Below are positions 22,516 through 36,488 of a stretch of DNA of 41,109 nucleotides, piece by piece; position 1 is the first letter of the stretch, and the number at the start of each line of letters is the position of its first letter. The notes below the pieces were generated by a model. It was not told where the DNA came from. It was given only the letters and a program-made list of their open reading frames with translations, and did not search any database. The DNA is from Patescibacteria group bacterium (GTDB lineage: Bacteria > Patescibacteriota > Microgenomatia > UBA10105 > UBA927). A program made the position numbers and the translations under genes. The stretch covers positions 1-41,109 of the forward strand of contig JBBTTM010000011.1 in assembly GCA_038064255.1 (NCBI GenBank), in the 5' to 3' direction.

Positions 22516-23412
22516 ATGCCGTGGTATTTTTTCGCATTTCTTACGCCAGCGTTTTATAGCATTAATAATATAGTTGATAAATTTCTCCTGGAAAAGCGGA
22601 TAAAAGATCCGTTTACTCTTACGGCACTTTCAGGATTCGTGACTGGATTAATTGGAGTAATTCTAGGATTTTTTACGGGGTTTCAACAAATCGGAGTGCT
22701 TCAGATTTCATTGTTGGTGTTTTCGGGAGTTCTCCTAATATTTTATCTTATACCGTATTTTGAGGCCATTAAGTTCGACGATGCCTCTCGCGTAATCCCA
22801 TTGTTTCAATTTATACCTGTTTTTACTTAAATTCTTTCCGCAGTATTTTTAAAGGAAGCATTGAGTGCCAAACAGGTGTTTGGTTTGGTGTTGGTCGTGG
22901 GGGCTGGGATTTTGATTTCGATCAAGAAGATTGAAGGATCTATATTTTTTCCCAGAAAATCATTCTGGCTTATGATTCTATCTAGTTTCATGTACGGTTC
23001 GATTGCAGTTCTGTTTCGTTTTGTTTCCAGAGATACCAATTTTTGGGCGGCTGTATCGTATCAGTACATAGGTACGGGGCTTGGTGGCGTGCTATTGATA
23101 TTGTTTCCCCGAGTACGACATGGGTTTGCTGTACGATTAATAGAGATAAAAAAATCCATACGGGTCATCGTAATTAGTCACTCTCTTGGATTGCTGGCTC
23201 AGTTATCAGAATCTATTGCTGTCACCATGGTTGCCGTACCCCTGGTTCATATCATCTGGAGTATTCAACCTGTTATTGTATTGATACTTGGAACTCTGTT
23301 AACAGTCTGGTTTCCGCATATTATAAAAGAAGATATCAAAAAAGCTGTTGTAGCTCATAAATTAGTATCAGTAGCTCTGATGTTTTGTGGTCTTTTTCTC
23401 GTATACTTTTAA
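22516..23412 (+). pseudogene. EamA/DMT permease interrupted by a single in-frame TAA (22828-22830)
   Basis: The track ORFs 22516..22830 and 22861..23412 are in the same frame. Reading through the TAA gives ...PLFQFIPVFT*ILSAVFLKEALSAKQVFGLVLVVGAGILIS..., a continuous EamA helix motif. Confidence 0.7.
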
Positions 23413-24989: not shown

Positions 24990-26216
24990 TTATCCTACTA
25001 CCTGAAATCCATTGTCGATTGTCGGGAGAATGCTGTCTATTATTTCGATTTCCAGATTAAACGTTTTATAGAGTTTTCGTACCGGTGTTCCAAGGAGTCC
25101 GGTGTAACAATCTTTCTGAAATTTTTCAGGAGCCTTGTCACAGGAATAAATTTGTTCGTAGATTTTTTCTCTCATCACCGGAAAATTTTTGGCATTTATG
25201 TCTCTTCCTGCAAATTCAGAATCTATGAATAACCCTATCCCGCCCCCTACACCGAGGTAACAATGTTTCTCGAGGTCCGGTCTGCCGATTGTTTTTGCGA
25301 TGTCACTACAGACAGATATACCTTCTTCATATTTTTTTGACAGGAATTTTGTCGAAGCGTTGTTTATACCGATTCTGTATACCAGAAATGAATAGCAGTC
25401 TCCCTTGTGTGATTCATCCGTCCCGCTGCATTCAGCGACGGATTGTTTGTATCCATCCGCTGAAAATTCTGAAAATAAAAAGAGATTATGTCCTATGCCG
25501 GTATAGCAGTACGCAAGTTCAGATTCCGGCACAAGCTTTTTACAGTCTTCAAAGGGAGCGTTGAGATCAGGATTTTTATTCGTGACATACGAGTATGTTT
25601 TTTTCGGTGCAAGCTGAAATGTGTTTTCTGTTATCGGATCTATGACACCCAGTATAGATGACGTGTATTTATCATGAAGTACGTGTCCCACTTCGTGTGC
25701 ACATTGATGTCTCATATCATCCGGACAACTTGGATAGAATTTTTCAAGTGTAGGATTTTCAAAGTTTGCTTCGAGAGCCGTCCGTTTAAAGAGTCCCATG
25801 ATGCATCCGCTGGTGCAGGATGCGCTGCACATTTTTATTTTTGTATCCAGATCCTGGTCACTGGTTGTTGCGATGAAATCTCCGACCGAATGATAAAACG
25901 AGTGACAGTTCGTTCCGAATACAGCATATGAAATATTCGGAGTGTCTTTTTGGAGGTCTTCGAACACCAATCCTTTTTCGTTTTATATAGCCGAGAGGAG
26001 TCCCTGAATATTATTTTTATAATACGATTCGATCGTATTTCTATAACAGGAAAAACGTGCGTTTGAAGGGGCACGGTTGCATGTTTCAATTTCTTTTCCG
26101 AAACTTTTTTTTACCGAGTTTCCATAAAGCGTAATGGCGGAGGCAACTAAAGCGAAAAATATTAATAAAAAAAGCAATGTTCTTTTTGAGGAAAAAATAT
26201 TTTTGGGGACATTCAT
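24990..26216 (-). pseudogene. Cys-rich secreted or anchored protein with an HExxH motif, interrupted by a single in-frame TAA (25983-25985)
   Basis: The track ORFs 25983..26216 (signal/TM: LLFLLIFFALVASAITL) and 24990..25970 are in the same frame. Read-through gives ...IQGLLSAI*NEKGLVFEDLQKD.... The body has CAHEVGHVLH plus repeated C-Y-x-G-x-G-like units. Confidence 0.55.
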
Positions 26217-26261: not shown

Positions 26262-27119
26262 TTATATGTGTATAATCAGAATCCCAGTGAATGCGAGAAG
26301 TATTCCAACAATTTTTCGATACATATTTTCTCTTTCTTTCAAAAGAATAATACTCAACATTATGACCCAAAGCGCTTTTGTTTCAAAGATAGGATTTATC
26401 AAGCTAATCTGATCGCTTATCTGATATGCCTTGAATAATGTATAGAAACTTAAACCCGCAAAGATCGCGGACCAGATGATCCGTCTTGCACGTTTATTCA
26501 CTACAAAATATCGAAGATCCGATATCTTTCTACGAAAGAATATGAGAAGTGCTATGGAAGGTAATCCAAAGGATAATACCTGGTAGAAAAGAGTTGGCAA
26601 AAAATGCAATAAATATTTGTCAGTCATATACGCTCCTGCGTAGAATGTTCCGGATAAAAGACCCAGTGTATGATACTTGGTCCATCTCTTGGTTCCTTTG
26701 TATCGAAATGCGATGAGTATCCCCAGTATGATCATGGATACACCTAGCAATTTATAGAAGGTAAAGGTTTCTCCTAAAAATAGTACCGCGCCGGAGAGTA
26801 CCCAGAGAGGAGTCGCACTTTCAAGGAACACGATCTCGCTTATTGGCACATGTTTCATGGAGGTAAAAAATCCCCACATCGCAACGGCGTAAAGACTTGT
26901 CATGAGGATAAGTACCATTACAACATTAAAAGTAAATATCTGAGGGTTTAGTGATTCGGAAAAAAATGCAAAGGGGAGTGTGAGTGCTGCGACGAGTAAT
27001 CCAAATGCTCCGGCAAATACTCCGCCATGGACTTTGTCATCACTGACGACGAGTTTTTGGATTATATTGGCTATTGCCATGAGGATCGGAGCAGCGAAAG
27101 CGTACGGAAGATAGTTCAT
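26262..27119 (-). CDS. EamA/DMT family permease
   Basis: 285-aa protein with 10 TM helices and a typical EamA end motif (LLKERENMYRKIVGILLAFTGILII). Confidence 0.75.
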   Translation of the reverse strand: MNYLPYAFAAPILMAIANIIQKLVVSDDKVHGGVFAGAFGLLVAALTLPFAFFSESLNPQIFTFNVVMVLILMTSLYAVAMWGFFTSMKHVPISEIVFLESATPLWVLSGAVLFLGETFTFYKLLGVSMIILGILIAFRYKGTKRWTKYHTLGLLSGTFYAGAYMTDKYLLHFLPTLFYQVLSFGLPSIALLIFFRRKISDLRYFVVNKRARRIIWSAIFAGLSFYTLFKAYQISDQISLINPIFETKALWVIMLSIILLKERENMYRKIVGILLAFTGILIIHI

Positions 27120-27126
27120 ACGTTGA

Positions 27127-27576
27127 TTATGTAGAATTGTTTTTTTGAAGATAATTAGTTTCGATCGCCTGGTCTACAGTTTTTCTGCTCCAACCGACGT
27201 GGAGAAGATTCTCTATAATTTGATTCTTGGATAGGTTTGCTTTTTTCGCCTGAGAAATATATTGTTGAAGTTGCGGATTGAATATGGGTATGATTTCTGA
27301 GTTGGATTTATTAATTATTTTGATGAAAGATTCGTATATTATTAATTCAGCGTAACCAGTGAACATCATTAGACCAAATAGAATGCATCCTCCAACACCT
27401 GCTGTACAGATTATGAGTATTGGCAAAAGAGAAATTATTTGACTTTTATCGATATAGGAATCAAGTATTCCAAGTAGAATAAATGTTATTAAACCTAATA
27501 TAAAGGCAATTATATTCCGCTTTTTTTTCGATTCCTTTGTTGAAGTTACAGTTTGTTGTCCCATACAATTCTCCAA
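27127..27576 (-). CDS. Small membrane protein with a soluble helical C-terminal domain
   Basis: 149 aa: a basic N-terminus, 2-3 TM helices, then the tail SKNQIIENLLHVGWSRKTVDQAIE. No family assigned. Confidence 0.5.
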   Translation of the reverse strand: MENCMGQQTVTSTKESKKKRNIIAFILGLITFILLGILDSYIDKSQIISLLPILIICTAGVGGCILFGLMMFTGYAELIIYESFIKIINKSNSEIIPIFNPQLQQYISQAKKANLSKNQIIENLLHVGWSRKTVDQAIETNYLQKNNST

Positions 27577-28625
27577 TATCTGATAACTGATATAGCGAGG
27601 ATCACATATATTGGTATAGCCAGAGCTACTTCTATGGGAATATGTGACAGAGGTGTTTTAAATCCGGAAAAGTTTTGTACGACGGATGAAGTAAACCATC
27701 TCATGCCAGAATTTATGGCAACTCCCTCGATCTGATAAAAGATAAAGCTCCCGGTTATGACATATAGAATGAAATGAGTTAGCGTATCTAATTTTGACGC
27801 TACGAAGTCTACGGCACCGGTAGTGAGTACGATTGTAAAAATCCAGAGAGATATCCGAAGAACATTTATATCTCTATAGATATACGTCCACTCTGGTAAT
27901 CCTTTTGTTACAACGAGCGGGGATATGATAATTTCAAGCAGAAATATCCAAAATGCTGCAGTGAGTAGATTTCTTAGAGTTATTTTATGATGTCCTGGAA
28001 CCAGGAGAGCAGGCGATAGGATGAGAACCCAAAATTTATAAAAACTTATGACAATGCCTGCGAATACCGGGAGATAGAAAAGTATTTCCATTGGAAGTGA
28101 GCCTACCATGCCAAATGAAGTCGAGATTATTTCAGGTGCAAAATATCGGATTCTAAGTGTCGATAAGAGAATTTCGAATACGATTCCAAGAATTAATATG
28201 GGAGGGATATAGATGATAAACCTCTGATGCTCTTTTGTATTTTTAAGTTTTTGATCTATTTGAGTAGTAATAAGGAGAAGAAGTGTGCTCCAGAATAACG
28301 TTATGACCCAGCTTACATCCATATAGATATATCCAAACATACCGAGATGATGTATGTTCCACATCGGAGCGGTAAAAAGCTGGAATAATATAACTCCAGT
28401 ACTCATGATAAAAAATCGTTTGAGAAAGTCAGCAAAGTTTTTCCTAAGATACAGCATATTAAGTACAAAAAAAATTATTACCACAGCAATAAATCCTGTA
28501 CTCATAGGGGTGAGAGTTTTATCGATCTGAGAAACTCCTGGGATGTTGCTACATTTCGGTATTTTTGCACAGAGTTCTAAAAAGAGATTCATACAGATAT
28601 TACGAACACTGACAACTATGGTCAC
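27546..28625 (-). CDS. Polytopic membrane protein of unknown function (apparent internal duplication)
   Basis: 359 aa, about 10 TM helices. Two similar segments carry aromatic W/Y motifs (TAPMWNIHHLGMFGYIYMD and KGLPEWTYIYRD). It overlaps both neighbouring genes, so it looks operonic. Confidence 0.55.
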   Translation of the reverse strand: MTIVVSVRNICMNLFLELCAKIPKCSNIPGVSQIDKTLTPMSTGFIAVVIIFFVLNMLYLRKNFADFLKRFFIMSTGVILFQLFTAPMWNIHHLGMFGYIYMDVSWVITLFWSTLLLLITTQIDQKLKNTKEHQRFIIYIPPILILGIVFEILLSTLRIRYFAPEIISTSFGMVGSLPMEILFYLPVFAGIVISFYKFWVLILSPALLVPGHHKITLRNLLTAAFWIFLLEIIISPLVVTKGLPEWTYIYRDINVLRISLWIFTIVLTTGAVDFVASKLDTLTHFILYVITGSFIFYQIEGVAINSGMRWFTSSVVQNFSGFKTPLSHIPIEVALAIPIYVILAISVIRYWRIVWDNKL

Positions 28626-29766
28626 TCACGTCTTTGCTGTTTCTGGTAGTGCTATCTTTTATTTTACACCCTCCCCACTTAGAAGATGCAAATTGTTCAT
28701 GTGAAGTCATTCGTTCCCACACTTTATACAAAGGTTCATCCAGAACATTTCCAAATATTGCATGGTTAAAATCACAGGACATCATCTCCCCATACGGGGA
28801 TATATAACAGTAACTCGCTCCGCACGAACAACCCACGCTTCTGTGGCTTGTAACGTATGCATAGACTAATATTCCGGGATACGTGAGATTTTCATTGTAC
28901 TGTTTCACATGCCTTATCATGTCTTCTACCCAATCGTGATTATCTATGAGGTCTTTTCTTTTTTTATATCTTCCTGTTGGCATGGCGTCAAAGACGATAA
29001 CTTCATGAACACCGAGGGTTTTTGCAAGCTCGATGATTTTGTCCAGTTCTCCTGATCTATAGCTTTCAGGGGTCATAGTCGTTGAAATACCGACTGACAT
29101 ACCGGTTTTTTTCGCTTCGAGGATTCCCTGAATAGCTTTATCATATAGTCCTTTAGATTTGCGGAAAAAATCGTGTTTCGCAGGATTGGCTGCATCTATA
29201 CTGACATACACTCCGTCGAGTCCATTTTGACGAAGAATATGTGCCATTTTTTTCAGAAGTGATCCGTTTGTAAAAAGAGCTGTAGAGCTCGTGGTTTTAT
29301 CGACACAGTTTATAATTTCCGGAAGATCTTCCCGAAGGAGCGGTTCTCCGCCGACAAAATTTATCATAGAAACCCCTAGTTCCTGAGCTTCTTTGATTAT
29401 CTGCTTGGCTTGATCCAGTGTAACTGTTTTTTTCTTTGGATTGTGTACTCCCTGGAAAAAACTACAATGTTCGCACGCAGCGTCACATGTATCGTTTACG
29501 GCAAAACTCATCAGATTAGGCATATTTTTATTCTGTACAGTTCGGTAAAAACTTCGTGCAACAAGATGTGCCATGGGTTTACTAAATACCGCGGGTGTTG
29601 ACAGGGAGTAGACAGGGTACCCGTCGCGGTAATGAATCACTTTTTCGTGGTTGAGATATATTTTATAAAAAAGTTTGATGTAGTCATAAGTGTAAGGAAT
29701 CGATTGTTTCGCGATAAAATATCGAAGCTTAATCGCAGAAATAATTTTATGAAATACGTTTGTCAT
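28600..29766 (-). CDS. Radical SAM enzyme with a C-terminal SPASM/twitch-like Cys cluster
   Basis: CxxxCxxC motif (NDTCDAACEHCSF), a GGEPLL glycine-rich SAM motif, and C-terminal GCSCGASYCYISPYGEMMSCDF ... GGCKIKD. Confidence 0.8.
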   Translation of the reverse strand: MTNVFHKIISAIKLRYFIAKQSIPYTYDYIKLFYKIYLNHEKVIHYRDGYPVYSLSTPAVFSKPMAHLVARSFYRTVQNKNMPNLMSFAVNDTCDAACEHCSFFQGVHNPKKKTVTLDQAKQIIKEAQELGVSMINFVGGEPLLREDLPEIINCVDKTTSSTALFTNGSLLKKMAHILRQNGLDGVYVSIDAANPAKHDFFRKSKGLYDKAIQGILEAKKTGMSVGISTTMTPESYRSGELDKIIELAKTLGVHEVIVFDAMPTGRYKKRKDLIDNHDWVEDMIRHVKQYNENLTYPGILVYAYVTSHRSVGCSCGASYCYISPYGEMMSCDFNHAIFGNVLDEPLYKVWERMTSHEQFASSKWGGCKIKDSTTRNSKDVSDHSCQCS

Positions 29767-29841
29767 ACTTTTGAGCGGGAAAACGACTGTGACAATCAGA
29801 TAGTATCATACAATGTAAGGGTGGAGTAATATGGTACCGAT

Positions 29842-30687
29842 ATGAAATGGATCCTATATTTTCGGGAACGATTTCCCATGCATTTGTTGCTTCTTTTTTG
29901 TTTTCTCTCAGTAAGGAGTATTTATTTTGACTTGGTACGTCCAAGAGAATTATTCGCGCTTACAATATTGTATCTCTTGTTTTTTTTATACCTCAGAATT
30001 CTAGATGAGTTTAAGGATTTTCGCTACGACAAGACACATCATAAAGATCGTCCGCTACAGCGGGGATTAGTTTCAAAAAAAGATTTGCTGATTCTTCTTT
30101 TCGTAACATTTTTAAGTATGGTAGCTTGTGTGTTTTTCCTGGGAGGTATATGGGTTTTTGCAGTGTTTGTCTTTTTGTATACACTCTGTATGTTCAAGGA
30201 GTTTTTTTGCCACGACTGGTTAAAAAAGCATATAGTCATATATTTGGTAAGTCACGAGATTGTGTTTGTGCCGCTCTGGATATATATATTTTCAGTCGTA
30301 ATGGGGGGATATCAATTCATACTTGATGCAAGCCATGTTTTTTTACTTATATATATGATTTTACCGGTTGTCATTATGGAAATTGGAAGAAAGATGGTGC
30401 ATAGAGTAAGTCACAAGGGTATCCAAACGAGTGATACATATGCGTATGAGTGGGGAGAAGGACAGGCCATATTTGTATTTTCCGCATTATTTATTGTCGG
30501 CGGAGTCATAGGTTGGAATACAGGGTTAATACGATCGAGTGGAATAATATTCATTTTTTCTTTTGGTGTATTTTGTTTAGTTATGCTGTACCAAAATCTA
30601 AAAGTTTTCGTAAAAAATTACTTATTATTTACATTCTTCGGAACGTTATTGCTTCCATGTATGTTGCTTTTTTTTCGCTATGATTAA
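29842..30687 (+). CDS. UbiA-superfamily prenyltransferase-like membrane protein
   Basis: 281 aa, about 8 TM helices. The first Asp-rich motif is LDEFKDFRYD, followed by DRPLQRGLVS (RPLxxG), as in UbiA/DGGGP-synthase-type enzymes. The second Asp motif is degenerate (SDTYAYEWGEG). Confidence 0.55.
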   Translation: MKWILYFRERFPMHLLLLFCFLSVRSIYFDLVRPRELFALTILYLLFFLYLRILDEFKDFRYDKTHHKDRPLQRGLVSKKDLLILLFVTFLSMVACVFFLGGIWVFAVFVFLYTLCMFKEFFCHDWLKKHIVIYLVSHEIVFVPLWIYIFSVVMGGYQFILDASHVFLLIYMILPVVIMEIGRKMVHRVSHKGIQTSDTYAYEWGEGQAIFVFSALFIVGGVIGWNTGLIRSSGIIFIFSFGVFCLVMLYQNLKVFVKNYLLFTFFGTLLLPCMLLFFRYD

Positions 30688-32359
30688 ATATACGATCTGG
30701 GATAAAACAAATATCGGAGAAAATTATCCGGGAATTACCAGCCCTCTCACATATTCATTTGTGAGACGCTCATATCAGGCTGTATATAAAAATTTTTGTC
30801 TTCGCATAGGAGTAAGTCCTACTGAAATTCGGGAAAAAAATTATATTTTTGAAAATCTGGTAGGGCATATACACGGCCAGTTGTATTATAATCTGCGCTC
30901 TTGGTATGAATTGTTGTCCTTTCTCCCCGGAGAAAGACAGACCAGCACTTGGTTTGACACGATGCTTGATCCGGTTGTTCGTCGATCAATTCATGAAATA
31001 ACGGATAGAAAATATTCATTTCCCTTTCGGATATACCGTATATATATAGGTGTTCGTTTTGCAATCCTCAGTGTTTTATTCCCGATTCTAAGAAGAGAAT
31101 TTGATAGAAAAAGTTCTGTTTTGTTTTCTTCCGGATATTCTGCACATTTTTCACAGATGATTGATCAGGAATTAATCGGATGGTTTAGAGTCTTAGAAGA
31201 TCGTTTTTTGTCTGTATGGGCAATACCCATAATAAATGATTTCCGTCTCATGGTGTCATACGGAATGTTGGTTCAAGCTTCTCGGTTATGGGTGTCTGAT
31301 CCAGATGAAGTGTTGCGTCGATTGTCTACGTATAAAAGTATGCCCATCAGCGTTATCATCCTTCGTGATTCACAGCATATAGCAAACATGATACGAGAAA
31401 CTCCTCTCTATTTCAGTTTATTTCAAAAGACCGATGCGACAGAAGTTTGGAAAAAATTGTCACACCCATCATTCAGAGATCTAAAGTATTTGATAGATGC
31501 TTATCTTGAACAGTATGGAGACCGTATGGCAAATGAATTAAAGCTTGAAGAGCCAAGTTTTCAGGAAAATCCGATCCGCTTTATAGAACTTTTAAAAAGA
31601 TATGCCAAAAATAAGAAAATAATCCAAAAGGACCGGACTCTTTTTTCTGAAACATCAAAACATTGGTGGCAACGCTTAATCTTATATTCACTGACTCGGT
31701 ATGTGTCTGACGCTATGCATCAGAGGGAATTATTCCGGTTGAGACGGTTACAGGCGTTTAGAGTTGCAAAAAATGTTTATCTTGAATGTGCACGTAGATT
31801 TGTAAACCGGAAAAAATTACATACATCTCAGGATATTTTTTTTCTGACTCATGATGAGATTATGGACAGTGCTCTTCATCCTTCCCTGGCTGGCTCGTTA
31901 TTTTCTCTTGTTCAAAAAAGAAAACATATTCAGTCTGAATATGCAAAATATATACTCCCACAATTGGTTCTGACTGACTCTTCAGGGACTATTGTCAGAC
32001 AAAAAGTTCAATCTAAGATAAGCGTAAAGAAGAATAGAAATTTATCAGGAAAGCCGGCTTCAGCGGGGACTAGGGAAGGAGAAGTTGTCGTTATGGATAC
32101 GCTTGACACGAAAACAGATATAGCTGGGAAGATATTAATTACTAAAACTACAGACCCAGGGTGGACTATATTGTTTCCACTACTTTCCGGAGTGATAACT
32201 CAGTATGGGGGCATGCTGTCTCATGCTGCTATAGTCGCGCGGGAGCTTGAGATACCATGCATAGTCGGAGTGTCGGGAGTGACGGAATTATTAAAATCTG
32301 GTGATAGAATTTTCATGAATGGTACTACGGGAGAGATCCACCGGCTAGAAAAAGTATGA
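30680..32359 (+). CDS. PEP-utilizing-enzyme swivel (phosphohistidine) domain protein with a rifampin-phosphotransferase-like central domain and no ATP-grasp domain
   Basis: The C-terminus ILITKTTDPGWTILFPLLSGVITQYGGMLSHAAIVARELEIPCIVGV is the mobile His domain. The N-terminus NIGENYPGITSPLTYSF ... GQLYYNLRSWYELLSFLPG resembles the substrate-binding domain of PpsA/RPH-like proteins. Confidence 0.65.
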   Translation: MIKYTIWDKTNIGENYPGITSPLTYSFVRRSYQAVYKNFCLRIGVSPTEIREKNYIFENLVGHIHGQLYYNLRSWYELLSFLPGERQTSTWFDTMLDPVVRRSIHEITDRKYSFPFRIYRIYIGVRFAILSVLFPILRREFDRKSSVLFSSGYSAHFSQMIDQELIGWFRVLEDRFLSVWAIPIINDFRLMVSYGMLVQASRLWVSDPDEVLRRLSTYKSMPISVIILRDSQHIANMIRETPLYFSLFQKTDATEVWKKLSHPSFRDLKYLIDAYLEQYGDRMANELKLEEPSFQENPIRFIELLKRYAKNKKIIQKDRTLFSETSKHWWQRLILYSLTRYVSDAMHQRELFRLRRLQAFRVAKNVYLECARRFVNRKKLHTSQDIFFLTHDEIMDSALHPSLAGSLFSLVQKRKHIQSEYAKYILPQLVLTDSSGTIVRQKVQSKISVKKNRNLSGKPASAGTREGEVVVMDTLDTKTDIAGKILITKTTDPGWTILFPLLSGVITQYGGMLSHAAIVARELEIPCIVGVSGVTELLKSGDRIFMNGTTGEIHRLEKV

Positions 32360-32949
32360 AATATTTTCGATTACTTCGTATAGCAGATGGGATAAGCATG
32401 ATCTCTCTCGTATTTGCATTCAATAGTATTTCTAAAATTTATGAGGGTTCGGCGAAATGGTCTATACTTTATTTTCTCATAGCGTTTTTATTTGATCTTT
32501 TGGATGGATATGTCTCAAGGAGATTTCAGATGGGCGGTGAGCTGGGTAGAATTATAGACTCTATAGTAGATTTTTTTACGTATTGTATTTTTTCAGCATA
32601 TTTTATCGTCCGATTTATAAATCCTAATCAATTTATTGGGTATGTGTGTGCGAGTTTCATAGTAGTTCTTGGTGCAATACGGCTTTCGAGATTTGTAAAA
32701 GTTGGCGTTTTGAAAGATTCATCAGGTTTATATTATCGTGGAATTACTGTTGTTCATGTGGCCCTGCTCATTGTTCTTTCATATCTTATTCCAATGTTTA
32801 GATCTGGAATTCCGGCAATCCTAGTGCAACTTGCAATTATTCTTTTTTCAGTTGGTATGTTGTCACAATATAAAAGCAGAAAAGTATCATCTGGGATATT
32901 AGCATTCGGCATAATAATTATTTTTGTGACAGTGTTAGTAACTTTTTAA
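32356..32949 (+). CDS. CDP-alcohol phosphatidyltransferase (PssA / archaetidylserine-synthase-size class)
   Basis: FDLLDGYVSRRFQMGGELGRIIDSIVD matches D-G-x2-(A/S)-R-x8-G-x3-D-x3-D. 197 aa, about 6 TM helices. Confidence 0.8.
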   Translation: MKYFRLLRIADGISMISLVFAFNSISKIYEGSAKWSILYFLIAFLFDLLDGYVSRRFQMGGELGRIIDSIVDFFTYCIFSAYFIVRFINPNQFIGYVCASFIVVLGAIRLSRFVKVGVLKDSSGLYYRGITVVHVALLIVLSYLIPMFRSGIPAILVQLAIILFSVGMLSQYKSRKVSSGILAFGIIIIFVTVLVTF

Positions 32950-32954
32950 TCGGT

Positions 32955-33446
32955 ATGAAGATGATTTATTCTACAAAAAGTAAAATACCGTCTCATGTTT
33001 TGTCAGAACATATATATACATCAATACAAAATGAAAAAATTTTAACAAACCGAAATAGAGAATATATTCAAACTTTTTTAAAAAAGAATTGTATATATAT
33101 GGCATTTGACGCGAACAATACAACAAAACCTATCGGATTTATATTTAGTCATGAAATAACTAATGGTATTGTAGAGCTGCAGAGTTTGTGGGTGGATCCG
33201 CTATGTCGAAAACGTGGAATTGCCAAGAGACTCATTGCCGATGCAACGCAAAATAGACAGAAGAAGTATGTAACCGCGCTCGTACAGCCATTTTTATCAT
33301 CAGTATTCTTAGAACAAGGGTTTAAAAAGGTAGATATTTATATTACACCTTTAGGTATATTACTTAGATATCTATTAAGAAAGTCTTTGTTTGATATTTT
33401 AAATTTTAGTCGGAAATCAGAGAGTGCTTTATATATAAAAATATGA
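32955..33446 (+). CDS. GNAT-family N-acetyltransferase
   Basis: Motif A LQSLWVDPLCRKRGIAKRLI, followed by FLEQGFKKV. Confidence 0.7.
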   Translation: MKMIYSTKSKIPSHVLSEHIYTSIQNEKILTNRNREYIQTFLKKNCIYMAFDANNTTKPIGFIFSHEITNGIVELQSLWVDPLCRKRGIAKRLIADATQNRQKKYVTALVQPFLSSVFLEQGFKKVDIYITPLGILLRYLLRKSLFDILNFSRKSESALYIKI

Positions 33447-34030
33447 TTGCAATCATAATAATCGGAATCGTCATATATTTGTTGCTCTTACTTGAGTGGA
33501 TATACCGCAGCGGATTTATACATGCAGAATATTCGCGAAAGATAGCGCATGTATTAGCATGCTGCATTGCAGCGGCAGCTTCCCAGATTCTGAGTCGGGA
33601 TGTATTTATATACATAAATATATTATTCGTTGTTATATTTCTGTATATACGGTGGAAAAAAATATTAGTAAGTATAGAAGGTGTGGATCGGTTCACGTAT
33701 GGTAGCGTTTGTTTACCACTTGGATTTATAGTTATAGGAATTTTTTTATACAGCAGAGTATATGAGATGCTGATTGGACTTGCTATTGTCGGTATTGCTG
33801 ATACGTGTGCAGGATTTGTACGATATAGATTTAAACTTCCAAAAAGCAGCTGGATTGCTTTTGTTATAGTATGGGTTTGTTCTTTTGCTACTTCCCGATT
33901 CATATTCGGAAATATCCAGTCACTGCTCATTGCAAGCTTGGTGTCTATGGCTGAAGTTCTATCCGGGTATGGAACCGACAATCTGACGATACCTCTCGTG
34001 TATGCTTTGTTAGTTTATTTTTTTAAATGA
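33443..34030 (+). CDS. CTP-dependent polyprenol/phytol/dolichol-kinase-like membrane protein (CdsA superfamily)
   Basis: 195 aa, about 6 TM helices, with SRKIAHVL, IVGIADTCAGFVRYRF and AEVLSGYGTDNLTIPL, resembling kinase-type members of the cytidylyltransferase family. Confidence 0.5.
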   Translation: MIAIIIIGIVIYLLLLLEWIYRSGFIHAEYSRKIAHVLACCIAAAASQILSRDVFIYINILFVVIFLYIRWKKILVSIEGVDRFTYGSVCLPLGFIVIGIFLYSRVYEMLIGLAIVGIADTCAGFVRYRFKLPKSSWIAFVIVWVCSFATSRFIFGNIQSLLIASLVSMAEVLSGYGTDNLTIPLVYALLVYFFK

Positions 34031-34551
34031 AGGGAAACCATAAGCATATCTGTAGCTTGATGGAGAAATATTCCCACGAAAACGGCAACCAAAATACTTT
34101 GTAGAGAAAAAGTAAATATAAAATAATACATGACTCCGACAGAGAATAATCCATCTGTCGTATCTATAATTCTGGTCAGTATTTGATAGGGTTTTTTTGG
34201 GGGATGCGATCCGGGAGGAATACCGAACCGCCGTTTTACAAAACTGTTCGGCAATTCTCCGATGTGATAGGCGCATCCGACGAGGGCAAAACGAAAAACA
34301 ATTTGCATTGGGCTCATGACTGAAGGATAAAAAATTGCATAGACTATGTATCCCCAAAATGCAGTTGATACCGACATCACCAATGGACCTCGTAACGTTT
34401 TATTTTTACCGAAGATAGGTTTTCCGAATAAAGTACATCCACCATCAAGAGGAATATTTAGTATATAGGAAAGTGAACTTTTTAAGAAGAAAATAAAAGT
34501 GATACCTCCGAGAAAAACAGGAATCACCATGGTAAAAATTTCATGTATCAC
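34015..34551 (-). CDS. CDP-archaeol synthase (CarS, DUF46)-like protein
   Basis: IPLDGGCTLFGKPIFGKNKTLRGPL and GELPNSFVKRRFGIPPGS ... IIDTTD align by eye with the two conserved CarS blocks (P-I-D-x-G ... G-K-x-I-L-G-x-x-K-T-x-R-G, and G-D-L-x-x-S-F-I-K-R-R-x-G ... D-Q). 178 aa, about 5 TM helices. Confidence 0.65.
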   Translation of the reverse strand: MIHEIFTMVIPVFLGGITFIFFLKSSLSYILNIPLDGGCTLFGKPIFGKNKTLRGPLVMSVSTAFWGYIVYAIFYPSVMSPMQIVFRFALVGCAYHIGELPNSFVKRRFGIPPGSHPPKKPYQILTRIIDTTDGLFSVGVMYYFIFTFSLQSILVAVFVGIFLHQATDMLMVSLHLKK

Positions 34552-35125: not shown

Positions 35126-35215
35126 GTATCGCTTTTTTTATCCTCAATATGAGAGTTGAGTCATTATATCAAAAAGAGTGGGTTTGTTATTCAGGGGTAT
35201 TTTTGTTAGTATAAA

Positions 35216-35345
35216 TGTGCATCAAGAGTGGCGGAGATATTCCGCCCGGCAACCGAGACTTTATACAAAGAACACGGTGCTAAAAATCTTAAGAGGATTG
35301 ATGTGGTATGAATCGTTCTTACGGTTCATACAAAAATATATTTGT
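35216..35345 (+). ncRNA. SAM riboswitch-like leader (SAM-I core with a shortened P2; SAM-I/IV-like) controlling metK
   Basis: The sequence catcaagagtggcggagatattccgcccggcaacc ... acggtgctaa ... aatcttaagaggattgatg carries the conserved AUCAAGAG, GGCAACC and GGUGCUAA blocks. P1 pairs catc(aa) with (tt)gatg. Confidence 0.55.
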
Positions 35346-35375
35346 ACTCCTCTTAAGTTTGAGAGGAGTTTTTTT
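35346..35375 (+). terminator. Intrinsic terminator (expression platform of the SAM leader)
   Basis: The 8-bp stem pairs actcctct with agaggagt, with an 8-nt loop and a T run running into the metK ATG. The 5' arm tcctcttaag (35348-35357) is perfectly complementary to cttaagagga (35288-35297) in the aptamer 3' side, which is anti-terminator logic. Confidence 0.6.
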
Positions 35376-36488
35376 ATGCAAAAAGATTTTATTTTTACCT
35401 CAGAATCAGTCTGTGCAGGGCACCCGGATAAAATTTGCGATCAGATTTCCGATGCGATAGTCGATGCGGTATTGAGCATTGATCCCTATGGCAGAGTTGC
35501 TATTGAGACATTGGTAAGTGAAAATCAGGTGGTCATTGCGGGCGAGGTGACCTCCGAAAAAAAAGTGAACTATGAAAAAATAGCCAGACGGGAAATAAAA
35601 CGGCTCGGGTACACAGAACCATTGTATCGGTTTACTGACAATTCACCGGTATATGTAAACGTTCATGAACAATCTTGTGAAATTGCACAGGGTGTAGATG
35701 AGGCCGGGGCAGGGGATCAGGGGATGATGTTTGGGTATGCCACAGATGAATCGACGAATTTCATGCCGCTACCCATAGAGCTTGCTCACTGCTTGGCGAT
35801 GCGTCTGGATGAGGTACGGGAATCTGGTCTGCTTTCATATCTTAGACCCGACGGGAAGACACAGGTGAGCATACGGTATAAAAATAATAAACCCGCAGAA
35901 GTGACAAGCGTAGTCATAGCGGTTCCTCATAGTGAAAAAGTAAAACTTCATCAAGTTAAATCAGATGTATTTCAAAGTGTGGTTCATTGGGTATTAGATA
36001 CATATGGGTTTACTTTTTTTGCGAAAGACTTGGTAGTAAACGGTACCGGAGTGTGGCATATCGGCGGACCTGCATCAGACACGGGTGTGACAGGACGAAA
36101 GATTGTTGTAGATACATACGGAGGCTTCGCGCGAGTAGGCGGCGGGGCTTTTTCCGGGAAAGACCCGACGAAAGTTGACCGATCCGGCGCGTATGCCGCG
36201 CGTTTTATAGCTAAAAACATTGTGGCCCATGGGTTGGCGAAAAAAGCTGAGGTGAGACTTGCGTATGTCATAGGGGTCAAAAAACCTCTGATGCAGGAGG
36301 TAGAAACGTTTGGTACAGAAACGGTTTCTTTTAAGATACTGCGCGAGTTTGTTTCACGGCTTATTGATACGTCGGTATCCGGCATTATAAAAAAGCTTGA
36401 TCTTAGAAAGCCGCAATATTTAACTACGGCCGCGTATGGCCACTTTGGCAGAGAGGGATTTAATTGGGAAAAAATTGAGAAAAATTGA
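35376..36488 (+). CDS. metK: S-adenosylmethionine synthetase
   Basis: FTSESVCAGHPDKICDQISDAIVDAVL, GAGDQGMMFGYA and GGGAFSGKDPTKVDRSGAYAARF are canonical MetK blocks. The start at ATG 35376 gives 370 aa; the track ORF starts upstream inside the leader. Confidence 0.9.
   Translation: MQKDFIFTSESVCAGHPDKICDQISDAIVDAVLSIDPYGRVAIETLVSENQVVIAGEVTSEKKVNYEKIARREIKRLGYTEPLYRFTDNSPVYVNVHEQSCEIAQGVDEAGAGDQGMMFGYATDESTNFMPLPIELAHCLAMRLDEVRESGLLSYLRPDGKTQVSIRYKNNKPAEVTSVVIAVPHSEKVKLHQVKSDVFQSVVHWVLDTYGFTFFAKDLVVNGTGVWHIGGPASDTGVTGRKIVVDTYGGFARVGGGAFSGKDPTKVDRSGAYAARFIAKNIVAHGLAKKAEVRLAYVIGVKKPLMQEVETFGTETVSFKILREFVSRLIDTSVSGIIKKLDLRKPQYLTTAAYGHFGREGFNWEKIEKN

Follow-up and report, generated by a model that had tools for sequence, protein, structure and literature searches.

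What is the substrate of a radical S-adenosylmethionine (SAM) enzyme whose gene is packed together with two unfamiliar membrane-protein genes and lies back to back with prenyltransferase and phospholipid genes? The question is raised by a stretch of 41,109 nucleotides (hereafter the window; contig JBBTTM010000011.1 of assembly GCA_038064255.1) from a Patescibacteria group bacterium, in which an earlier note, made from the letters alone, had described an operon of four minus-strand genes and had proposed a membrane lipid, rather than a peptide, as the substrate of the enzyme. Our computational follow-up suggests that three of these genes (termed here the triad), encoding the radical SAM enzyme, a duplicated polytopic protein with ~10 transmembrane (TM) helices and a small 2-TM protein, represent a module that tailors the isoprenoid portion of a polar lipid and not a peptide, a reading to which we would assign a probability of roughly 60% on the strength of sequence and gene-order comparisons.

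Gene maps, read or rebuilt for 16 loci, define the conserved unit as the triad and not as the four-gene block described earlier. The genes for the radical SAM enzyme, a membrane protein of ~345 aa and a 2-TM protein of ~130-170 aa follow one another in that order in every sufficiently long locus (the window, L001, L003, L005, L008, L042, L044, L045, L046, L047, L048, L049 and L065/L066). The fourth gene, correctly recognized as an EamA permease, stands beside the triad in the window only; no other locus has it, not even that of the closest relative (L047), where the enzyme is 75% identical, the divergent layout is the same and a signal peptidase gene is found in the place of EamA. The permease is an operon member specific to this lineage and lies outside the core. 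A divergent version of the triad (L063 2232-4511) encodes its membrane protein in two separate genes (182 and 172 aa), behind which lie two genes for membrane proteins of ~100 aa each; its radical SAM enzyme is 39% identical, with the same N-terminal domain, and a divergent PPDK_N gene is adjacent.

A search with the radical SAM protein yielded 743 matches, the best 120 of which are all 58-75% identical over their full length. The homologues belong to Patescibacteria (Woykebacteria and others) and to many cyanobacteria, while a Verrucomicrobia metagenome-assembled genome was added by a genome scan; the cluster is also present in complete genomes of cultured Synechococcus (CP060396.1). In a maximum-likelihood tree the cyanobacterial sequences form one clade (96/99 support) and all others fall into another clade of poor resolution. 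Since the cyanobacterial clade stands apart in this tree, the ~60% identity observed across phyla reflects constraint, and a recent transfer from cyanobacteria to bacteria of the candidate phyla radiation (CPR) was rejected as its cause. Of 401 evenly sampled Patescibacteria genomes, 4 carry the radical SAM gene and 7 a gene for an Rph-like phosphoenolpyruvate (PEP)-utilising enzyme, the 7 including all four with the radical SAM gene (hypergeometric p ~3e-8, by our own arithmetic). The membrane protein accompanies the enzyme in 6 of 6 radical SAM genomes (in two of them with contig breaks separating the genes), as opposed to 0 of 3 genomes that carry only the base module, as we refer to the plus-strand genes that face the triad in the window.

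The triad adjoins a UbiA-family prenyltransferase gene and the Rph-like gene in 10 of the 13 informative loci, spanning three phyla, mostly in the same direction and often with overlapping genes; the pairing with prenyltransferase and phospholipid genes, first described for the divergent arrangement of the window, is thereby borne out well beyond it. In the six CPR-type loci (the window, L047, L042, L043, L003 and L048) these neighbours are UbiA, the Rph-like enzyme, a CDP-alcohol transferase, a GNAT protein, a membrane protein of ~195 aa and a convergent CarS-like protein. The three cyanobacterial loci (L001, L005 and L065/L066) contain UbiA and a full-length Rph-like enzyme, followed in L005 and L065/L066 by DUF3419 and GNAT-like genes, and the single Verrucomicrobia locus (L008) combines UbiA and the Rph-like enzyme with HMG-CoA reductase. 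DUF3419 is the annotation of betaine-lipid synthase proteins of the BTA1 type (PMC10685587). Thus, comparison of the CPR and cyanobacterial neighbours indicates that the triad is flanked by two non-homologous ways to add an amino-acid-type lipid head group. In the cyanobacterial clusters (L065/L066 14273-19020; L005 14752-17158) the DUF3419 and GNAT-like genes are followed by a hydantoinase/caprolactamase-like protein of 1336 aa or by an AMP-binding enzyme, and the genes from DUF3419 to the end replace the CDP-alcohol transferase, the CarS-like gene and the 195-aa protein of the CPR version. A CarS-like neighbour of the CPR type was also noted at locus L007 (CAYMOO010000058.1).

The remaining three informative loci (L045, L046 and L049) have neither UbiA nor an Rph-like gene at a distance of up to 9 kb from the triad (directly upstream of the L045 triad lies a homologue of the 195-aa protein), and one genome (G011, locus L060) has the base module without the triad. 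Such arrangements would be expected if the triad acted on a general isoprenoid (undecaprenyl or another polyprenyl phosphate, a quinone tail, a hopanoid or a carotenoid) and its adjacency to the base module reflected a shared precursor pool only, and it may be added that the phyla involved share few isoprenoid lipids beyond polyprenyl phosphates. We nevertheless consider this explanation unlikely, given that the adjacency extends over 10 of 13 loci and three phyla with its mostly co-directional and often overlapping genes, that the Patescibacteria genomes with the radical SAM gene carry the Rph-like gene in 4 of 4 cases, and that even the divergent split version of the triad adjoins a PPDK_N gene.

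The membrane protein of the triad offers a further indication of an isoprenoid substrate. It has no assigned Pfam or NCBIfam family, every one of its public copies is named "hypothetical protein", and its family, with 120 clusters at 50% identity in a set of 1.84 billion representatives, is small. The internal repeat suspected earlier is real: the N-terminal and C-terminal halves are homologous (hhalign probability 99.7%, E 2.6e-26, 142 columns), so that the protein is an internal duplication of a ~150-aa unit, and the family includes half-size proteins that match the N-half alone or the C-half alone. An AlphaFold2 (AF2) model (predicted local distance difference test score, pLDDT, of 77; predicted TM-score 0.81) reproduces the ~10 TM helices anticipated from the sequence, but neither this model by Foldseek (best E 0.77) nor the family profile finds a match in the PDB.

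A relationship was found with PF18916 (Lycopene_cyc), which produces sub-threshold matches over almost the full length of six family members (16.7 bits for the protein of the window and 16.5-21.3 bits for five others, with the gathering cut-off of 27 not reached); the membrane-protein open reading frame (ORF) is also the strongest PF18916 match in its whole genome. This relationship was evaluated by collecting true PF18916 proteins from other genomes, aligning their domains and comparing profiles by hhalign. The N-half aligned to the true Lycopene_cyc alignment with a probability of 91.6% (E 8e-7, 110 columns) and the C-half with 48% (E 2e-4), as compared with at most 0.4% for the controls (one reversed and 20 column-shuffled alignments). 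The motif PxE, invariant in both halves (P166-E168 and P318-E320), aligns to the PLEE of the true PF18916 proteins. Judged by these profile comparisons, the membrane protein is a remote relative of the lycopene-cyclase fold that lies outside the Pfam family PF18916. In the heterodimeric or fused CrtYc/Yd cyclases, which are built from a three-helix unit, PxE(E/D) is the reported catalytic signature (PMC12016392; bioRxiv 10.1101/367102). The residue that follows the motif in our family is I, V, G or A and never E/D, and the unit comprises ~five helices, the extra two being N-terminal to the aligned part according to the AF2 model and the alignment.

The parallels with the CrtYc/CrtYd and CrtYe/Yf cyclases extend to overall architecture, since both groups are small polytopic membrane proteins with two homologous units, present as one fused protein or as separate halves (as in L063). 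The catalytic PxE of the CrtYc/Yd cyclases resides in a TM helix, and these enzymes act on the terminal isoprene unit of a chain. Cyclases of the CrtYc/CrtYd type pair with a UbiA-family lycopene elongase, CrtEb, in C50-carotenoid clusters. The obligatory radical SAM partner, on the other hand, has no counterpart among carotenoid cyclases, and carotenoid genes (crtB, crtI) were observed at none of the loci examined. The same genome encodes a second ORF resembling a lycopene-cyclase domain, on a different contig (C19:1-819, equivalent to L012 1-819, plus strand); it is at least 272 aa long, open at the contig end, ends in ...RIPVEEAIFFF...YEFFDDDGR, scores 13.6 bits to PF18916 and resembles a true PF18916 protein of L032. 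Proteins above the PF18916 cut-off were found in 16 of the 201 small genomes of one sample, which belong to organisms not known to make carotenoids.

The radical SAM enzyme itself belongs to the superfamily (Pfam Radical_SAM, PF04055, 83 bits vs. a cut-off of 29.5), and its cluster motif CDAACEHC (C94, C98 and C101), the CxxxCxxC noted earlier, is invariant across 13 aligned homologues that represent several phyla. The SPASM/twitch-like C-terminal region that had been proposed is retained in part only. The Pfam SPASM match is marginal (24.1 bits vs. a cut-off of 21.5), and the only other invariant cysteines in the 13-homologue alignment are C313, C315, C331 and C367; the terminal CQC of the window enzyme is not conserved in homologues. 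A SPASM domain is defined by a seven-cysteine motif, CX9-15GX4C, a gap, CX2CX5CX3C, a further gap and C, that holds two auxiliary [4Fe-4S] clusters, of which the present family keeps C315-x10-G-x4-C331 along with C313 and C367 and lacks the CX2CX5CX3C block. A full SPASM domain was therefore rejected, and the four invariant C-terminal cysteines point to one auxiliary cluster in a twitch-like or partial SPASM domain. The N-terminal ~85 aa form a separate domain, better conserved than the rest of the protein (70% mean column identity), which has no match in Pfam or the PDB, and no PqqD or RRE (recognition element of RiPPs, peptides made on the ribosome and modified after translation) match either.

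Although as many as 74 NCBIfam models match the enzyme, none does so near its own cut-off, all peptide-maturase models included, and no placement in a curated family was obtained. The top matches are NirJ2 (135 bits, 4e-39) and AhbD (133 bits, 1.3e-38), both with cut-offs of 500, and the nearest solved relatives by sequence are BlsE, MoaA and PqqE. Foldseek searches with an AF2 model (pLDDT 69) are led by BlsE, SuiB, SkfB, MoaA and viperin, which are generic twitch/SPASM relatives only. The enzyme represents a family of its own, and a highly conserved one. AhbD/NirJ2, BlsE and MoaA, which score highest in sequence and structure over the radical SAM core with a twitch/SPASM-type C-terminus, raise the possibility of a cluster that makes or modifies a prenylated cofactor (quinone- or tetrapyrrole-like), in which an AhbD/NirJ/BlsE-type decarboxylase or a MoaA-type cyclase would work on the polar moiety and the tail would be attached by UbiA. 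UbiA-family enzymes do prenylate quinone and tetrapyrrole precursors, and the UbiA protein of L008 has weak chlorophyll-synthase matches. We regard this explanation as improbable, as the scores reach only about one quarter of the cut-offs and reflect the generic core, those enzymes lie in another genomic context and have neither the N-terminal domain nor the membrane partners, and the cluster contains phospholipid-type genes (the CDP-alcohol transferase and CarS-like genes in CPR, the betaine-lipid-type DUF3419 in cyanobacteria) with no ring-precursor biosynthetic genes linked to it.

Among the closest known systems are Tes/GDGT-MAS (PDB 7TOL), Gms and GrsA/GrsB, archaeal radical SAM proteins which build C-C bonds or rings at unactivated carbons in the isoprenoid lipid tails of the membrane and have no peptide precursor. 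No kinship of the enzyme with Tes, Gms or GrsA is apparent beyond the superfamily; the lipid substrate of the earlier proposal gained from the conserved lipid-gene adjacency, the cyclase-like partner and the lack of a peptide-maturase family. GDGT-MAS/Tes is a detectable relative over the radical SAM core alone (E 7.7e-8, residues 83-291 only, 23% identity); it ranks 32 in the Foldseek list, with a TM-score of 0.36 on the target and 228 of 493 columns aligned, so that similarity does not extend over the whole length of this ~500-aa enzyme. Gms is described as exceeding 420 aa, its N-terminal domain being composed of six helices and its SPASM domain holding two auxiliary clusters, Tes as having an auxiliary cluster and GrsA/B as probably having none (PMC11186832). 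The triad enzyme (388 aa, family ~385 aa), with one four-cysteine auxiliary site and an 85-aa N-terminal domain of its own, is set apart from Gms by that description, and its conserved auxiliary site also distinguishes it from the layout reported for GrsA/B. HpnH (adenosylhopane synthase), a bacterial radical SAM enzyme acting on the terminal double bond of a membrane isoprenoid, is a weak match (1e-18, 67 bits vs. a cut-off of 225) with a different domain layout, and no hopanoid genes (shc, hpn) occur in the cluster. We know of no requirement for a lycopene-cyclase-like membrane partner in Tes, Gms or GrsA/B.

The small protein, as inferred earlier, is a membrane protein with a soluble tail: two TM helices and a variable linker precede a conserved C-terminal domain of ~45 aa (Y..A...G.S..I...L...GW), in which overall conservation is weak and the Tyr and the Gly-Trp are invariant. 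It is the sole conceivable protein substrate, and hence the basis of a minor rival explanation, by which the radical SAM enzyme would modify the tail of the 2-TM protein as a membrane-held substrate recognized through the N-terminal 85 aa of the enzyme. Peptide maturation is common among SPASM/twitch enzymes, SuiB and SkfB are among the structural neighbours, and the small protein is always co-encoded, with a conserved tail motif that is doubled in the L044 homologue. Yet the small protein is only ~25% conserved, as compared with ~60% for the enzyme, and a single auxiliary cluster contrasts with the two that are typical of SPASM peptide maturases. A co-encoded precursor and an RRE/PqqD-like element, by which RiPP maturases are recognized, were both lacking. 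No plausible small precursor ORF is present in the short intergenic spaces of the window, in agreement with the earlier observation, and an all-against-all comparison of 2547 ORFs of 20-120 aa from 11 loci revealed no free-standing small ORF conserved across these loci, the multi-locus clusters being alternative-frame shadows within the radical SAM, membrane-protein or Rph-like genes. With the N-terminal domain resembling neither RRE/PqqD nor any other known fold, and with the strict pairing with a cyclase-like membrane protein and the link to prenyl genes left unexplained, a protein or peptide substrate appears very improbable. The earlier note had named two outcomes that would count against a lipid substrate, namely robust grouping of the enzyme with a non-lipid family such as a peptide maturase with a nearby precursor, and an unconserved adjacency to lipid genes; the lipid reading withstands both because the adjacency is conserved and neither a peptide-maturase family nor a precursor was found.

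From this combination of genes we infer the identity of the substrate, the chemical steps and a physical contact among the three triad proteins. The radical SAM enzyme, the duplicated cyclase-like membrane protein and the 2-TM protein would form one unit that tailors the hydrocarbon part of a polar lipid within the membrane. In this genome, the base module would build that lipid: the UbiA-family enzyme may transfer a prenyl chain, the Rph-like enzyme, the 195-aa membrane protein and the CarS-like enzyme may phosphorylate or CTP-activate the lipid, the CDP-alcohol transferase may add a serine-like head group and the GNAT protein may acylate this head group. The two membrane-embedded PxE glutamates of the 10-TM protein could then serve as general acids on a terminal C=C bond for cyclization or hydration, as in CrtYc/Yd, while the radical SAM enzyme, docked via its conserved N-terminal domain and/or the 2-TM adaptor, could remove a hydrogen from a carbon of the same chain that is not activated and could use its one auxiliary cluster to finish a ring or a C-C bond or to bring about an oxidation. 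EamA would be a local add-on, possibly an exporter or flippase. The host genome (1.22 Mb, 96.6% complete) encodes one trans-polyprenyl-diphosphate synthase; therefore, a prenyl donor is available. Its only PPDK_N protein is an ordinary one, encoded on another contig (a 776-aa ORF on contig C69).

Several observations weigh against this reading. The nearest sequence matches of the enzyme (NirJ2, AhbD, BlsE and MoaA) are heme and cofactor enzymes and nucleoside decarboxylases, not lipid enzymes. Occurrence of the triad alone in three loci implies that its substrate need not be a product of the neighbouring genes, and the base module, as in G011, can in turn occur without the triad. The cyclase homology is remote (16-21 bits vs. 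the Pfam cut-off of 27), with the second acidic residue of PxE(E/D) absent and with five helices per half instead of three. Finally, the CPR Rph-like enzyme lacks an ATP-grasp domain, and the host genome has no geranylgeranylglyceryl phosphate (GGGP) synthase (PcrB/GGGPS), for which reason the classical archaeal ether-lipid pathway via digeranylgeranylglyceryl phosphate (DGGGP) was rejected. As to the Rph-like enzyme, the ATP-grasp domain (PPDK_N) is absent in all CPR-type loci (552-577 aa), whereas the cyanobacterial and Verrucomicrobia proteins are full-length (888-981 aa); in L043 (12591-14336, G166:C22) the gene is broken by one in-frame TAA and appears as two ORFs.

A more specific proposal, which we advance only tentatively and hold to be doubtful as it stands, is that the triad and its neighbours constitute an unrecognized bacterial pathway for an isoprenoid-tailed, amino-acid-headed lipid, whose tail would be ring-closed or cross-linked by the cyclase-like protein together with a radical SAM enzyme bearing a single auxiliary cluster. 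Radical SAM enzymes of lipid tails (Tes, GrsA/B, Gms, Mss, HpnH) have been found only recently and explain important membrane adaptations and geochemical biomarkers, and CPR bacteria are usually considered incapable of membrane-lipid synthesis and are assumed to scavenge their lipids. If the proposal is true, some CPR bacteria would on their own make and modify a polar lipid of the isoprenoid kind, and a related lipid, hitherto undetected, would be produced by many cyanobacteria. The general lipid reading, should it hold, would add a new lipid class or biomarker source as well as a new enzyme pair in which an acid-catalysed cyclase fold works together with a radical enzyme. Among lipid-tailoring radical SAM enzymes, the new feature would be an obligatory lycopene-cyclase-like partner that is unannotated in any database. 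The searchable literature yielded no description of this gene combination and no relevant paper on lycopene cyclases in CPR bacteria. The function is testable in the cultured Synechococcus carrying the cluster.

The features of the window are collected in Table 1. With the longest ORFs, the junctions of the four minus-strand genes are exactly those described earlier (overlaps of 26 and 31 nt, then a gap of 7 nt). In two of the genes, translation probably starts at another codon than the first of the longest ORF. The membrane-protein gene is assigned the ATG at 28592 because its homologues and the called gene (P0121/P0122, 348 aa) begin with MNLFLE, which turns its 26-nt overlap with the radical SAM gene into a 7-nt gap; for the small-protein gene, a GGAG is found 7 nt upstream of the ATG at 27564, and the overlap would then be 19 nt. 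The minus-strand genes are tightly packed under either choice. A promoter and terminator scan returned sites no more frequently than expected by chance.

Table 1. Features of the window around the triad (positions in the 41,109-nucleotide stretch).
Feature	Position	Strand	Size	Remarks
Second EamA-like gene	22516-22830 and 22861-23412	+		two adjacent ORFs
Cys-rich HExxH ORF	24990-25970	-	326 aa	
Signal/anchor-like ORF	25983-26216	-	77 aa	
EamA/drug-metabolite transporter (DMT) permease	26262-27119	-	285 aa	EamA 76.6 bits; starts 7 nt downstream of small protein
Small membrane protein	27127-27576	-	145-149 aa	2 TM helices, variable linker, conserved C-terminal helical domain
Polytopic membrane protein	27546-28592 (longest ORF to 28625)	-	348 aa (longest ORF 359 aa)	~10 TM
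Radical SAM gene	28600-29766	-	388 aa	
Divergent intergenic region, radical SAM/UbiA	29767-29841	.	75 nt	no ORF of its own of at least 20 aa
UbiA-family prenyltransferase	29842-30687	+	281 aa	base-module member, usual companion of triad
Rph-like PEP-utilising enzyme	30680-32359	+	559 aa	substrate and swivel-His domains, no ATP-grasp; overlaps UbiA gene by 8 nt
CDP-alcohol phosphatidyltransferase	32356-32949	+	197 aa	top matches archaetidylserine synthase and PssA, both sub-threshold
GNAT acetyltransferase	32955-33446	+	163 aa	
Membrane protein without family assignment	33443-34030	+	195 aa	conserved in base module; homologue directly upstream of triad in L045
CarS-like (CDP-archaeol-synthase-fold) membrane protein	34015-34551	-	178 aa	convergent with base module
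SAM-I/IV riboswitch	35214-35347	+		46.6 bits vs. cut-off 41.1
ORF associated with riboswitch	35178-36488			

A few minor observations concern the surroundings of the operon. A SAM-I/IV riboswitch lies ahead of the ORF at 35178-36488, ~5.4 kb from the SAM-consuming enzyme, an adjacency not seen in other loci. Immediately downstream of EamA, the signal/anchor-like ORF and the Cys-rich HExxH ORF follow at close spacing, a pair that is not conserved beside the triad elsewhere, and the window contains a second EamA-like gene in the form of two adjacent plus-strand ORFs.

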